Below are positions 2,446 through 10,895 of a stretch of DNA of 42,305 bases, one piece after another (the first letter of the stretch is position 1; the number at the start of each line of letters is the position of its first letter). Where the stretch lies: UHGV virus genome UHGV-0118819; one strand, given 5' to 3'. This DNA is from a virus. The notes beneath the pieces are model-generated. The model was not told where the DNA came from, ran no database searches, and saw only the letters and a list, made by a program, of their open reading frames with translations. The position numbers and the translations under genes are program-made.

Positions 2446-2521
2446 GCTGGTTTAGCTCCAATGGTAGAGCAGTCGCCTTGTAAGCGAATGGGTAGCGGTT
2501 CAAGTCCGTTAACCAGCACCA
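2446..2521 (+). tRNA. tRNA-Thr (anticodon UGU)
   Basis: Hand-folded 76-nt cloverleaf: 7-bp acceptor stem GCTGGTT/AACCAGC, D-arm GCTC..GAGC with GG, anticodon loop CTTGTAA, T-loop TTCAAGT, encoded CCA. Confidence 0.8.
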
Positions 2522-5946: not shown

Positions 5947-7569
5947 ATGCCGTTACCATTTCCCTTCGATTTTAAACATCCTGATTACCAGATGGTTTTT
6001 GAATGGCGGATGGAACGCTTACAGCGCATTCGCCAGAACCCTGAAATATTGCCAGCACTAAAACAGTTTTACCGGACCAACCCGGCTCAGTTCATCATCG
6101 ACTGGGGCATGACAACGGACCCGCGTAATATTGATTATGGCCTGCCGGTGACCATTCCGTTTTTACTCTTCCCTAAGCAGGAGGAGTGGATCCACTGGAT
6201 TATGGAACGCTGGGGTAATCGGGAGAATGGTATTACCGAAAAATCCCGTGAAATGGGGCTCAGTTGGACCGCGATCGGACTGGCCTGCTCGCTTTGTCTC
6301 TTCAACAAAGAAATGGTTATCGGTTTCGGCTCCCGTAAAGAGGAATACGTCGACAGCACCGGTGACCCGAAAGCATTGTTCTGGAAGGCGCGCAAGTTCG
6401 TGGAAACACTACCTGTAGAGTTTCGCGGTTCGTGGAGCGAGAAGAAGCACGCGCCATATATGCGTGTTGAGTTTCCTGAAACTGGTGCCGTTATCAAAGG
6501 CGAGGCTGGCGATAATATTGGTCGTGGTGACCGTACCACGCTTTATCTGGTTGATGAGGCTGCATTCCTTCAGCGTCCTCTGCTGATTGATGCGGCGTTG
6601 TCACAAACGACGCGTTGCCGTATTGACCTGAGTTCAGTTAACGGCATGGCGAACCCGTTCGCTCAGAAGCGTCATGGCGGGAAGATACCGGTATTCACAT
6701 TCCACTGGCGGGATGATCCTCGCAAGGATGAAGAGTGGTATCGCAGGGAATGCGAGAAAATCGATAATCCGGTGGTGGTGGCACAGGAACTTGACCTGAA
6801 CTACAGCGCATCAGCGGAAGGCGTCCTGATTCCATCCGAATGGGTACAGGCTGCCGTTGATGCACATATCAAACTGGGGATCCAGCCAACAGGCAAACGA
6901 CTTGGCGCGATGGATGTCGCCGACGAAGGCAGGGACAAAAATGCCTTTTCCACCCGTCATGGCTTCCTCCTGGAGAATGTGCGGGAATGGTCCGGTGTGG
7001 GCAGCGACATTTATCAGTCCGTCGAGAAGGTCTTCGGTTTTTGCGAACAGGACAACCTCGAAGAGTTTCGCTTTGATGAGGACGGGCTGGGCGCTGGCGT
7101 TCGCGGCGATGCACGCGCTATCAACGAACAGCGTAACGCTGCGCGTCGACCGTCAATACTCGCTACACCGTTTCGCGGTAGCGGCGCGGTGTTTGATCCG
7201 GACGACGAAGCGGTGCGCGGTGACAACGGGCAAGCCGCACGTCTGAACAAGGACTTCTTCGCTAACGCCAAAGCCCAGAGCTGGTGGCGGTTACGTAAAC
7301 TTTTTCAGAATACCTGGCGCGCCGTGGTTGAAGGTATGGCTTACAACCCGGACGAAATCATCTCAATCAGCAGTGGCATGGCACTCAAAGATAAACTCAT
7401 CATCGAGCTTTCGCAGCCGACCTATTCCATTAATGGTGTGGGAAAAATCGTTATTGATAAACAGCCTGATGGAACCCGGTCGCCAAACCTTGCCGACTCG
7501 GTGATGATCAGCTACGCGCCAATGAATTCAGCCCTGAACATCTGGGAGCTGCTAGGGAGACAGGCCTGA
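5947..7569 (+). CDS. terminase large subunit
   Basis: 540-aa ORF directly after terS and before portal; acidic motifs (LYLVDEAAF) consistent with ATPase/nuclease. Confidence 0.8.
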
Positions 7570-9035
7570 TGGCACGAAACAAACAAGCCCTGCGGAGAAC
7601 TGCGCAGGCCACCGCTGATGGCTATGAGAACTTTGTCGCCCGCGTGGGAATGCAGACGCCTAACCAGCACTCAGCATCGACCTACCGGGCTAACTTCACC
7701 AGTCGCAACCGCATGCTGGTGGAATGGTCCTATCGTTCGTCCTGGATCATCGGCGAAGCGGTCGATGCTATCCCGGATGATATGACCCGCAAAGGCATTC
7801 GCATCACTTCGGAAATTGATGCAAAAGATCGCGGCATTCTCGAATCACAACTGGATGAGTTGCAAATCTGGGATGCGCTGAACGACGTGCTGAAATGGTC
7901 GCGTCTCTACGGCGGCGCGGTGGGTTTCATCATGATTGAGGGGCAGGCACCAATGACCCCGCTGAGGCTCGAAACCATTGGAGAAGGCAAGTTTAAGGGC
8001 GTTCTCCCACTCGACCGCTGGATGATTAACCCGGTGCTGACCCGCCGCATTAAAGATATGGGGCCGGATCTCGGCAAACCTGAGTTTTACGATGTGGTGA
8101 CCACAGCAACGGGAATTCCTGCCTGGCGCATCCATCACAGCCGCCTGATTCGCTTCGATGGCGTCACGCTGCCATTCCAGCAGAAGATGACCGAAAACGA
8201 ATGGGGAATGTCGGTTGTAGAGCGAATCTGGGATCGGCTTACTGCGTTCGACAGCGCCACTCTCGGCGCGGCTCAGCTGGTCTACAAAGCGCATCTGCGC
8301 ACCTACAGCGTGGAGAAGCTGCGCGAGATTATCGCGCTTGGTGGCCCAGCGTTCGAAGCGTTGCTGAAGAACATCGACCTGATCCGCCAGTTCCAGAGCA
8401 ATGAAGGCATGACGCTCATGGACTCGCGGGATAAGTTCGAAACCCACCAGTACAGCTTCAGTGGTCTGGATGACATTCTTTCGCAGTTCGCTGAGCAGAT
8501 AAGCGGTGCCGTTGGTATCCCGCTGGTGCGCCTTTTCGGGCAGTCCCCGAAAGGCTTCTCTACCGGTGACGCAGACCTCGCCAACTATTACGACCGGGTG
8601 AGCTCGTTGCAGGAACGCCGCTTACGGCTGCCGATGCGTCGGATACTGGACATCATGCATCGTTCGGAGCTTGGCAAGCCGCTGCCGGACGATTTCACGT
8701 TTGAGTTTAACCCGCTCTGGCAAATGTCTGACGTTGACCGCTCAACGGTGGCCGTAAATACCACCACCGCGATCAGCACCGCGCTGGGCGACGGATTGAT
8801 GACGCGTAAGGCGGCAATGACCGACCTACGCGAAAACTCTGATGTCACCGGCATCGGGGCATCTATTACCGACGAGGATATCGAGAATGCCGAAGACGAA
8901 GCGCCGCCAGGCATCGGCGAACTTGACGACAAACCGCCAGAGCCGCCAGGCGGAGATCCGATATCGAACGAGCCTACGGCAGATAGCGCGGGCGGTCGGG
9001 GACATCGTAAATGGTCGCTACGATGGTTCAAATGA
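7569..9035 (+). CDS. portal protein
   Basis: 488-aa ORF following terL with ATGA-type overlap; position and size. Confidence 0.8.
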   Translation: MARNKQALRRTAQATADGYENFVARVGMQTPNQHSASTYRANFTSRNRMLVEWSYRSSWIIGEAVDAIPDDMTRKGIRITSEIDAKDRGILESQLDELQIWDALNDVLKWSRLYGGAVGFIMIEGQAPMTPLRLETIGEGKFKGVLPLDRWMINPVLTRRIKDMGPDLGKPEFYDVVTTATGIPAWRIHHSRLIRFDGVTLPFQQKMTENEWGMSVVERIWDRLTAFDSATLGAAQLVYKAHLRTYSVEKLREIIALGGPAFEALLKNIDLIRQFQSNEGMTLMDSRDKFETHQYSFSGLDDILSQFAEQISGAVGIPLVRLFGQSPKGFSTGDADLANYYDRVSSLQERRLRLPMRRILDIMHRSELGKPLPDDFTFEFNPLWQMSDVDRSTVAVNTTTAISTALGDGLMTRKAAMTDLRENSDVTGIGASITDEDIENAEDEAPPGIGELDDKPPEPPGGDPISNEPTADSAGGRGHRKWSLRWFK

Positions 9036-9660
9036 CAGTATCACGGAAATTATTGAGGCGCTGGAACGCTACAGTGAAATCATCACCCCCTGGGCGACAA
9101 AGGTAGCTGAGAACTTCACCGCAGACATAGCGCGCCAGAATGAAAAGCAGTGGCGTCAGCACAGCCGGAATATCAGCTCAGAGCTGCGCAACATGGTCGA
9201 CCGCGCTCCGGTAGGCCAGGTGATGAAATCCATCGTCGCCGAGCAAATTAAGTACATCAAATCGCTGCCTCTTGAGGCCGCCGATCGGGTGTATGACATT
9301 CAGAACAAGGCCATCGAGGCCGTTGTGTCTGGTGGCCGCGCTGAACCATTCGCGAAAGAGATAGCAGCGTCCGGTGACGTGTCACGCTCACGAGCGAACC
9401 TTATCGCCCGTACCGAGCTTGGACGTGCAACCGGCGCGCTGGATCAGGCGCGTGCGCTGTCAATCGGCTCGAATGGTTATATCTGGCGTACAGCCGAAGA
9501 TGGCGACGTCCGGCATTCTCATCGGGAGATGGAAGGTAAGTTTGTCGAATGGGGCAAACCTCCAACGCTTGATGGCATGACCGGTCACGCTGGCGAGCTC
9601 CCGAATTGTCGCTGTTATAAAGAAATCGTTTTTCCCAACCCTCATTCTTATCTCGCCTGA
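8887..9660 (+). CDS. head morphogenesis protein (Mu F / SPP1 gp7-like)
   Basis: ORF 8842-9660; GAGGA RBS before ATG 8887; about 150 bp out-of-frame overlap with portal 3' end. Confidence 0.75.
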   Translation: MPKTKRRQASANLTTNRQSRQAEIRYRTSLRQIARAVGDIVNGRYDGSNDSITEIIEALERYSEIITPWATKVAENFTADIARQNEKQWRQHSRNISSELRNMVDRAPVGQVMKSIVAEQIKYIKSLPLEAADRVYDIQNKAIEAVVSGGRAEPFAKEIAASGDVSRSRANLIARTELGRATGALDQARALSIGSNGYIWRTAEDGDVRHSHREMEGKFVEWGKPPTLDGMTGHAGELPNCRCYKEIVFPNPHSYLA

Positions 9661-9674
9661 ATCGCAGGTAAACC

Positions 9675-10895
9675 ATGAAATATTTTTTCAATACCAGGCT
9701 GGGGGAAACCCGCTATCAGCTGGCTGACGGCTCGCTGCTGTGCAAAGACGTGCCGATAGGTCGAACGGGTAAGCAGCTCTACGGCTCTGCCGATCTGCCA
9801 AACCTCAAACCCGACAAGCTCGGTGAGATAGTCGTAACGCGTTCTCCTGAGCAGGTATTCCATCCGGCCACGCTCGCCTCATTCGAAGGGATGAGCATCA
9901 CGATCCTGCATCCTGAAGATGAAAACGGGAATGTGCGGCTGGTAAATCCCGAGAACTGGAAAGAGCTTGCTGTCGGGCACCTCCAGAATGTCCGGCGCGG
10001 GACGGGTGAGCAGTCTGATTTGATGCTGGCTGACCTTATCGTCAAAGACGAAAACGCCATTCAGCTTATCGAAGATGGCCTGCGTGAAGTGTCGTGCGGC
10101 TATGACGCGGAGTACGAGCAGACCGAGCCAGGTAAAGCCGAGCAGGTCGATATTACCGGAAACCATGTGGCTCTTGTCCCCAAAGGCAGAGCCGGAAATC
10201 GTTGTGCAATTGGAGACAGAGACACAATGGCAAATCAAAAGAAAAACTGGTGGAACCGCATGCGTGCAGCCATCAAGACAGGAGATGCCGACACCATGAA
10301 CGAACTGGTGGAGTCGGCTCCCGCATCGGTTACAGGAGATGAGGGGGATTTGCCGCAGGGCGTTAATCTCAACATCAACCTGTCCCCGCAGCAACCACTA
10401 CCGGACAAAGCACCAGAGATGGGTGGAGGTCCAACCGGCGACAGTGATGATGACCTCAAAACATTACTGAAAGCCCTGCTGGCTAAGCTGGAAGGAAATG
10501 CGACGGGCGATAACGACAATAAGCCTGACGATAATCCGACCGGTGACGGCGAGGACGATGAAGAGGAAACCACGATTACTGGTGACTCAGCCTGGCGTGC
10601 CGAAGTTATCGTTCCGGGTATCGATCTGAGCCGTAAGATGAAACCGACCGCGTTCAAACGCGAGGTTCTGGCTTCCGCAGATAAAACGCTGGTTCGCCAG
10701 ATAGTCGGTGATGCGGATATCCGCAAATTGCCGAAACAATCGGTCGACATGGCGTTTAATGCCGTGTCTGAGATTGCCAAAGGGCGAAACACCCGCGCCA
10801 CCACCGGCGATGCACAGCGCCCAAACATGGGCATGACCAGTATCGCTTCCCTGAACAAACAAAACGCTGAATTCTGGGCAAACCGTAAAGGGTAA
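9675..10895 (+). CDS. scaffold/prohead protease-like protein (DUF2213-like) with acidic low-complexity region
   Basis: 406-aa ORF between morphogenesis gene and capsid genes; D/E-rich repeats TGDSDDD...GDGEDDEEE. Confidence 0.6.
   Translation: MKYFFNTRLGETRYQLADGSLLCKDVPIGRTGKQLYGSADLPNLKPDKLGEIVVTRSPEQVFHPATLASFEGMSITILHPEDENGNVRLVNPENWKELAVGHLQNVRRGTGEQSDLMLADLIVKDENAIQLIEDGLREVSCGYDAEYEQTEPGKAEQVDITGNHVALVPKGRAGNRCAIGDRDTMANQKKNWWNRMRAAIKTGDADTMNELVESAPASVTGDEGDLPQGVNLNINLSPQQPLPDKAPEMGGGPTGDSDDDLKTLLKALLAKLEGNATGDNDNKPDDNPTGDGEDDEEETTITGDSAWRAEVIVPGIDLSRKMKPTAFKREVLASADKTLVRQIVGDADIRKLPKQSVDMAFNAVSEIAKGRNTRATTGDAQRPNMGMTSIASLNKQNAEFWANRKG

Follow-up and report, generated by a model that had tools for sequence, protein, structure and literature searches.

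A long out-of-frame overlap between the portal and MuF genes of virus genome UHGV-0118819 that appears to be maintained by selection

Introduction

Do two core virion genes truly share 149 nucleotides (nt) of DNA in different reading frames, or is their overlap the product of a misplaced start codon or of an insertion or deletion (indel)? The question is raised by the end of the portal gene and the beginning of the MuF-like head-morphogenesis gene in the virus genome UHGV-0118819, of which one strand was analysed over its full length of 42,305 nt (the window). An earlier note on this DNA had described the overlap and left these three options side by side. The features concerned are the following.

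7569-9035, plus strand: portal gene, 488 amino acids (aa), Phage_portal_3/DUF1073 (Pfam PF06381), stop codon TGA at 9033-9035
8887-9660, plus strand: gene for a MuF-like minor head or head-morphogenesis protein, 257 aa (Pfam PF04233), best start ATG 8887, stop codon at 9658-9660
8887-9035, plus strand: predicted dual-coding overlap of 149 nt, portal in frame 0 and MuF in portal frame +1, based on open reading frame (ORF) coordinates, locus comparison and selection tests

Portal residues 440-488 are encoded in the overlap, as are MuF residues 1-49 and the first two bases of MuF codon 50. The gene identities given in the earlier note were correct. The portal protein matches PF06381 with 353.6 bits (E=1.2e-105), above the threshold, and is homologous to solved dodecameric portals, namely those of Pam3 (8hds, E=2e-35) and E217 (gp19, 8fvh, E=1.5e-13). 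The 272-aa MuF ORF matches PF04233 (Phage_Mu_F) with 68.0 bits against a cutoff of 29.6 (E=1.5e-18, residues 152-258), and its homologues are labelled as phage head morphogenesis or minor capsid proteins in their source records. The distance of about 150 bp that had been noted between ATG 8887 and the out-of-frame portal stop is exactly 149 nt. As for the statement that the MuF ORF is open from 8842, this position is the first ATG, but the frame itself is already open from 8821, after a TGA at 8818-8820; its in-frame start codons are ATG 8842, ATG 8887 and TTG 8923. On the evidence presented below, we consider the out-of-frame overlap to be genuine and evolutionarily maintained, with MuF predicted to be translated from an internal GAGGA/ATG 8887 start, at a probability of about 0.88.

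Conservation of the overlap in homologous loci

Eighty genomic loci of MuF relatives, with 46-99% MuF identity, were fetched, and the upstream portal stop of each was mapped onto the MuF protein of the window. The arrangement is shared by about 70 prophage loci from at least 24 genera, in which MuF always lies in portal frame +1 and the overlap measures 134-179 nt. MuF identity in these loci ranges from about 50 to 99%, and they reveal no indel in the window. Nearly all of them have the portal stop at MuF residues 49-56, and one Morganella locus has it at residue 61. Most belong to the Enterobacterales, and Cupriavidus and Ralstonia are found among them too.

The region shares 83-93% identity with Citrobacter phage Omnitron, Salmonella phage SEN34 (Brunovirus), Escherichia phage vB_EcoM-606R2 (606R2) and relatives, and Hafnia phage yong1. 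The comparison with SEN34, yong1, Omnitron and 606R2 is ungapped. The MuF-frame peptide RQAEIRYRTSLRQIARAVGDIVNGRYDGSNDS, encoded upstream of the portal stop, is nearly invariant in these four phages, and the portal-frame peptide of the same DNA is more variable. In the protein alignment, the MuF N-terminal segment SRQAExxYRTSLRxIAxxVGDIVxGxYDGSNDS is retained down to 60% identity, with Xenorhabdus, Pantoea, Morganella, Providencia and Arsenophonus among the genera. The N-terminal helix region of MuF (AEIRYRTSLRQIARAVGDIV) is encoded inside the overlap and is also kept in distant relatives with a 4-nt overlap. Its counterpart RKAEVQYARQLRKVARHIGDLV is present in Bosea and other Rhizobiales relatives despite an overlap of only 4 nt (ATGA). 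Since the helix also occurs in relatives without a long overlap, this segment is a bona fide part of MuF. The earlier note had proposed an alignment with homologues and had named a MuF start downstream of the portal stop as the outcome that would speak against the overlap. The alignment gave the opposite result, a conserved MuF N-terminus upstream of the portal stop, which together with the purifying selection in both frames described below favours the option of a genuine overlap.

The length of the overlap is graded among the relatives (loci L050, L059, L082, L084, L063 and L038 compared with L075, L077 and L085). Bosea and another Rhizobiales genome stand at the lower end with 4 nt, followed by Ochrobactrum and Chelatococcus (26-29 nt), Alkanindiges (47-50 nt), Oxalobacter (68 nt) and Chitiniphilus (92 nt); Cupriavidus and Ralstonia reach about 160 nt. 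In Arsenophonus (L038, 92 nt), the portal stops early and has no LRWF tail, which is found in its Enterobacterales relatives.

Two records attributed to Flavobacteriia hosts, a contig of Chryseobacterium sp. 18061 (L054) and Elizabethkingia phage EKP1 (L088), carry this module in its enterobacterial form, including the 149-nt overlap and the LRWF tail. L054 has a MuF identity of about 54% and stands near the Klebsiella/Enterobacter prophage clade. The attribution of both records could be due to host misassignment or contamination.

Selection in the two reading frames

Column entropy was calculated per codon position from 21 gap-free, non-identical sequences, also in sliding windows of 30 nt. 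The values at portal codon positions 1, 2 and 3 were as follows.

8500-8886, portal-only zone: 0.35, 0.18 and 1.19, variation at portal third positions
8887-8949, first part of the overlap taken whole: 0.72, 0.55 and 0.91, transition between the two patterns
8950-9032, remainder of the overlap: 0.68, 0.21 and 0.29, MuF pattern (portal position 1 is MuF position 3)
9036-9400, MuF-only zone: 1.23, 0.58 and 0.43, MuF pattern

The sliding windows keep the portal pattern up to about 8919; between 8920 and 8949, entropy is about 1.0 at each codon position, which suggests that both proteins have a linker there. Up to about 8919, selection is thus mostly on the portal frame; the stretch 8920-8949 shows it in neither frame, and from about 8950 onwards the MuF frame is its main target. 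Mean column entropy is lowest at 8950-9032 (0.39; portal-only zone 0.57, MuF-only zone 0.75), and this is the signature expected of double constraint. Three features of this block are considered here.

8950-9032, plus strand: overlap core, MuF residues 22-49 (AEIRYRTSLRQIARAVGDIVNGRYDGS) and portal residues 461-488 (GGDPISNEPTADSAGGRGHRKWSLRWFK), with the MuF substitution pattern dominant and the lowest variability
8982-8987, plus strand: portal Asp472-Ser473 ('DS' motif) over MuF Ile33 (ATA in 69 of 69); Asp472 is GAT in 70 of 70, Ser473 is AGC in 61 and AGT in 8
9019-9029, plus strand: nearly invariant 11-mer TACGATGGTTC, found by row comparison, coding for MuF Tyr45-Asp46-Gly47-Se(r48) and portal (L)eu484-Arg485-Trp486-Phe487

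The 11-mer is unchanged in 68 of 72 rows, among which the window occurs twice, and its MuF codons are TAC in 72, GAT in 70 and GGT in 70 of these rows. Codon freezing was then counted in 70 non-identical loci, with conserved residues elsewhere in the same sequences as controls. In MuF, Tyr45 is always TAC (70/70), Ile33 always ATA (69/69), and Asp46 and Gly47 are GAT and GGT in 68 of 70 loci each. Third positions of MuF have a mean entropy of 0.59 in the overlap, compared with 1.49 at 65 conserved control residues (control minimum 0.52), and where Gly, Tyr and Asp are conserved elsewhere in MuF, all their synonymous codons are in use. The portal protein has frozen codons as well: in addition to Asp472, Arg485 is CGA in all 70 loci and Phe487 is TTC in 68 of 68, against a mean third-position entropy of 1.37 in the controls. 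Portal constraints are therefore visible at MuF synonymous sites, and they are found at the DS...LRWF motif of the portal tail.

Synonymous sites in one frame are frozen because a conserved residue is encoded in the other. For instance, TAT in place of TAC in MuF would introduce a TGA stop into the portal frame. When the MuF protein was held fixed and its synonymous codons were randomised, the portal frame reached its real stop without interruption in an average of about 9% of trials per locus; in the observed sequences, it is open in 69 of 69. The frozen sites and the openness of the portal frame beyond chance show that both frames are maintained by selection. Judged by openness and by purifying selection, the two ORFs are predicted to form a functional dual-coding gene pair, of which both products are expected to be translated.

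Start codon of the MuF gene

Three features bear on the position of the MuF start.

8874-8878, plus strand: Shine-Dalgarno-like GAGGA, 8 nt upstream of ATG 8887, within the portal codons for the conserved TDEDI motif, from the sequence and its duplex with 16S rRNA
8923-8925, plus strand: alternative TTG start, which gives a 245-aa protein and a 113-nt overlap and is used by the NCBI bacterial annotation
8842-8844, plus strand: first ATG of the MuF ORF, not the start codon

The good ribosome-binding site that had been noted at 8887 corresponds to GAGGA with its 8-nt spacer, and 8887 is the best-supported start. The duplex of GAGGA with the 3' end of 16S rRNA has a free energy of about -5.9 kcal/mol, and values of about -6 kcal/mol are reached in most loci. 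Of 68 loci, 52 have GAG as the Glu codon that forms this site. In five Photorhabdus loci (L072, L073, L074, L076 and L080), this codon is GAA and an equivalent of ATG 8887 is missing; they have an ATG five codons upstream with a strong Shine-Dalgarno sequence. The portal codon before Ala441, which supplies the AT of ATG 8887, is AAT, GAT or CAT in 57 of 57 loci and never the synonym ending in C. In three Yersinia loci, AGT in this place results in a GTG start. Three neighbouring portal Asp codons vary between GAC and GAT (35/32, 22/46 and 19/11). The start codon and the Shine-Dalgarno sequence are thus held in place at portal synonymous sites.

ATG 8887 is kept in SEN34, 606R2, yong1 and Omnitron. 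In yong1 and several other genomes, a stop codon immediately precedes this ATG, and in several loci it is the sole candidate start. The Shine-Dalgarno sequence of TTG 8923 is weak (-2.5 kcal/mol), and its position lacks a start codon in many loci. Downstream of it, the MuF frame of the window contains no further ATG, GTG or TTG until ATG 9193. Sequence comparison thus suggests ATG 8887 as the likely MuF start, with 8923 as the alternative, and the overlap is at least 113 nt with either of the two. ATG 8842 was rejected as a start: it has no Shine-Dalgarno sequence (free energy +0.1), 606R2, yong1 and Omnitron lack it, and in the first two of these in-frame stops separate its position from 8887.

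Annotation in databases

The database records place the MuF start differently. In the GenBank/RefSeq records of SEN34, yong1, 606R2 and Klebsiella phage Mulock, MuF starts after the portal stop (annotated genes at 2984-3592 in L001 and L003, 3062-3592 in L002 and 1957-2505 in L086), and 55-81 conserved N-terminal residues are lost. The annotated starts of SEN34, yong1 and 606R2 are equivalent to positions 9052 or 9130 of the window, which has ATT at 9052. The NCBI bacterial pipeline, with its start equivalent to TTG 8923, trims 12 MuF residues. Accordingly diverse are the lengths of MuF homologues in databases, with 257, 245/244, 202, 176 aa and others in a range of 176-257 aa. Among the phage records, an overlap of 62 nt is annotated in Magia and one of 38 nt in EKP1, and none in Mulock, SEN34 and yong1; the full overlap is absent from every phage record inspected.

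Portal and MuF domains joined in one protein were found in four single-member cases, P0121, P0125 and P0127 (696-697 aa) and P0131 (655 aa), which switch frames at four different points inside the overlap. The unfused forms fall into clusters of up to 178 member sequences. The four fusions are probably sporadic indels or assembly errors and not the normal state. Two GA(T/C)ATCG repeats appear to have been joined in P0131 by a deletion of 123 nt.

Alternative explanations

If MuF really started downstream of the portal stop, the open frame upstream would be fortuitous. The phage records with starts at the equivalents of 9052 or 9130, or otherwise past the portal stop, and the existence of protein clusters of 202 and 176 aa would fit this explanation. 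It is nevertheless highly unlikely, as the homolog alignments contradict it. The window lacks a start codon at 9052 and anywhere between 8923 and 9193, the residues to be removed are among the most conserved of the family and are present in relatives without any overlap, and the MuF substitution pattern is already seen from about 8950 onwards, 85 nt ahead of the portal stop. The start-site ambiguity that the earlier note had considered does exist in databases, but it is narrowed to 8887 versus 8923 and hence to an overlap of 149 or 113 nt. An indel or a sequencing error could also have made an artificial overlap out of a fused portal-MuF gene or of two non-overlapping genes. The single two-domain proteins of 655-697 aa do show indels in this stretch of some assemblies; they are, however, all singletons with different switch points, next to large unfused clusters. 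The alignment to four independent phage genomes is gap-free, the two-ORF arrangement with the same frame relation and both frames intact recurs in about 70 loci, and the portal's own C-terminal LRWF motif is conserved. The indel option of the earlier note is therefore extremely improbable for this locus and was abandoned.

Two further explanations accept the overlap as real DNA and differ in its use. Programmed +1 ribosomal frameshifting, either within the overlap or at its end, could yield a portal-MuF fusion beside the two separate proteins. Portal-MuF fusion genes are annotated in some actinobacteriophages, the MuF protein gp7 of SPP1 binds the portal, and a +1 slip anywhere in 8887-9035 would lead from the portal into the MuF frame and to a fusion of about 696 aa. 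A conserved slippery or stop context is absent, the terminal codons of the portal vary between loci, and the conserved Shine-Dalgarno sequence and ATG favour independent initiation, so that frameshifting is very unlikely. Around the MuF start and the portal stop, no stable RNA structure was predicted, with folding energies not better than those of shuffled sequences (z = -0.78 and +1.56). This result also concerns the idea that 8950-9032 is conserved as a nucleic-acid element, such as an RNA structure or a protein-binding site, and not by dual coding. The near invariance of TACGATGGTTC and the fact that the block is the best-conserved DNA of the region in nearly all loci could be read in this way. 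Each frozen position is accounted for by a conserved amino acid in one or the other frame, however, and the variation that is present follows the MuF codon periodicity; a nucleic-acid element is thus given very little probability.

Several observations weigh against a genuine overlap that starts at 8887. The stretch 8887-8919 carries the portal substitution pattern, and MuF residues 1-11 are without independent protein-level constraint. The NCBI pipeline favours TTG 8923 (245 aa), and in one clade another ATG, 8 codons further downstream, has a stronger Shine-Dalgarno sequence (-10.2 kcal/mol), so the exact MuF start may differ between clades. Moreover, both AlphaFold models described below are weak, and we infer the expression ratio of the two proteins and the relative age of the two frames.

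Portal tail and structure

The portal C-terminus has a conserved DS...R...LRWF(K/Q/T) motif, and the termini differ among loci (LRWFK*, LRWFKR*, LRWF*, LRWFTGQR* and LRWFQRFGD*, where the asterisk stands for the stop). The solved portals of Pam3 (8hds) and E217 gp19 (8fvh) align only to portal residue 451 or earlier and leave the tail uncovered. No solved structure of a MuF homologue was found. Both proteins were modelled with AlphaFold2 from alignments of 24-25 sequences, which resulted in weak models with predicted local distance difference test (pLDDT) values of 53.5 and 57.7. In these models, portal residues 444-488 are unstructured, and MuF residues 8-44 form a helix followed by the YDGSNDS loop. 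The models hint at a portal tail that may be a young, disordered extension.

Proposed expression and origin

In the expression of this gene pair, the portal would be translated through to TGA 9033-9035. On a late polycistronic mRNA, MuF would initiate independently at GAGGA-ATG 8887, in the +1 frame, inside the conserved C-terminal 'TDEDIENAEDE' segment of the portal. Ribosomes that translate the portal would then run over the MuF initiation site, and this traffic could hold the output of MuF well below that of the portal. The one MuF protein studied in experiments, gp7 of SPP1, attaches to the portal at 1-2 copies per capsid (Jamet 2017, PMC5576092).

As for the origin of the overlap, the last ~28 residues of the portal are probably the younger frame, overprinted on the older N-terminal helix of MuF, because relatives without the overlap possess this helix but lack the LRWF tail of the portal. 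At the other end, the first ~11 residues of MuF lie over the DEDIxxAExxPP motif of the portal, which would be the older element beneath the MuF start. A tentative scenario, which we hold to be rather doubtful as a whole, goes further. The ~28-residue tail might have arisen de novo by a shift of the portal stop into the +2 frame of the MuF helix and might then have taken on a docking or regulatory role, e.g., towards MuF, the scaffold or the terminase, while the internal start would fix a low MuF:portal ratio. In this view, the relatives with overlaps of 4, 26-29, 47-50, 68, 92 and about 150-165 nt would represent stages of the process.

Surrounding genes

The neighbourhood of the two genes contains the following features.

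5947-7569, plus strand: large terminase (TerL), an ORF with a product name taken from homologous phage records and without a Pfam match
9675-10895, plus strand: DUF2213 protein, by Pfam
2366-2440 and 2446-2521, plus strand: two adjoining tRNA genes upstream of the packaging genes, tRNA-Asn (GTT) and tRNA-Thr (TGT)
8588-9031, minus strand: antisense ORF of 147 aa that covers the whole overlap region

The gene order is TerL, portal, MuF and DUF2213, with MuF directly downstream of the portal as expected for a MuF-type context. The end of TerL and the start of the portal overlap in the usual minimal manner at 7566-7572, where the last base of the TerL ORF (7569) is the first base of the portal ATG, in contrast to the 149 nt at the 3' end of the portal gene. 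The antisense ORF is probably a by-product of the constrained, stop-poor plus strand.

Implications

The main value of this locus lies in annotation and in studies of overprinting. The evidence gives a defensible MuF start, and the correction of the annotation extends to the homologues of this protein, which were found in 146 phage records and in prophages of at least 24 bacterial genera. For evolutionary studies, the locus offers a clean, deeply sampled case of a long out-of-frame overlap of two core virion genes in which each frame constrains the other, and the relatives with overlaps from 4 to about 165 nt provide a natural series for overlap growth by overprinting. In genetic experiments, the roles of the LRWF tail and of MuF could be studied with precise point mutations that inactivate one protein and leave the sequence of the other unchanged.

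Comparison with known systems

Out-of-frame overlaps are known from several phages, e.g., D/E and A/B/K in phiX174, the lysis gene L over coat and replicase in MS2, and Rz/Rz1 in lambda. As in these systems, a single stretch of one strand of the portal/MuF locus would encode two proteins in different frames, an internal ribosome-binding site precedes the downstream gene, and both frames leave footprints of selection. One frame is also apparently younger and encodes a low-complexity segment predicted to be disordered. In contrast to these systems, the portal/MuF overlap is a terminal overlap of adjacent ancient structural genes and not an embedded small accessory gene. It also shows reciprocal dominance, of the portal frame in the 5' third and of the MuF frame in the 3' half. 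Out-of-frame phage gene overlaps have been reviewed (PMC8227390, PMC7017920). Among viral overlaps, 84% are shorter than 50 nt, and longer ones occur (PMC7017920); the 149 nt of portal/MuF belong to the long tail of this distribution.

No description of a portal/MuF overlap turned up in a literature search on overlapping and overprinted portal genes. It is unmentioned in the description of SEN34 (PMC5261728), and in a survey of MuF proteins, muf genes are described only as lying 'immediately downstream' of the portal genes, with no mention of an overlap (Jamet 2017, PMC5576092). The portal/MuF overlap is a previously undescribed case of a known feature type and not a new mechanism or system.

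Within the MuF family, the locus resembles gene 6/gene 7 of SPP1 and H/F of Mu, where a MuF-domain gene stands directly downstream of the portal gene in the packaging and head module (PMC5576092). Unlike the order described for SPP1 and Mu, 49 codons are shared here, and an extra conserved DS...LRWF tail of the portal is encoded within the MuF gene. Portal-MuF fusion proteins combine the same two domains in one polypeptide, whereas the window has two separate ORFs and the fusions found here are sporadic with differing junctions. The Rhizobiales relatives (Bosea sp. ASV33 and TAF32 and Rhizobiales bacterium 2SD; L075, L085 and L077) share with the window a homologous portal, a MuF protein with the N-terminal helix (46-50% identity) and the gene order. 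In contrast to the window, they have only the 4-nt ATGA overlap, a common type, with frame relation +2, and a MuF protein without the YDGS motif, and their portal ends soon after the DDIxxAExxPP motif, without the LRWF tail.

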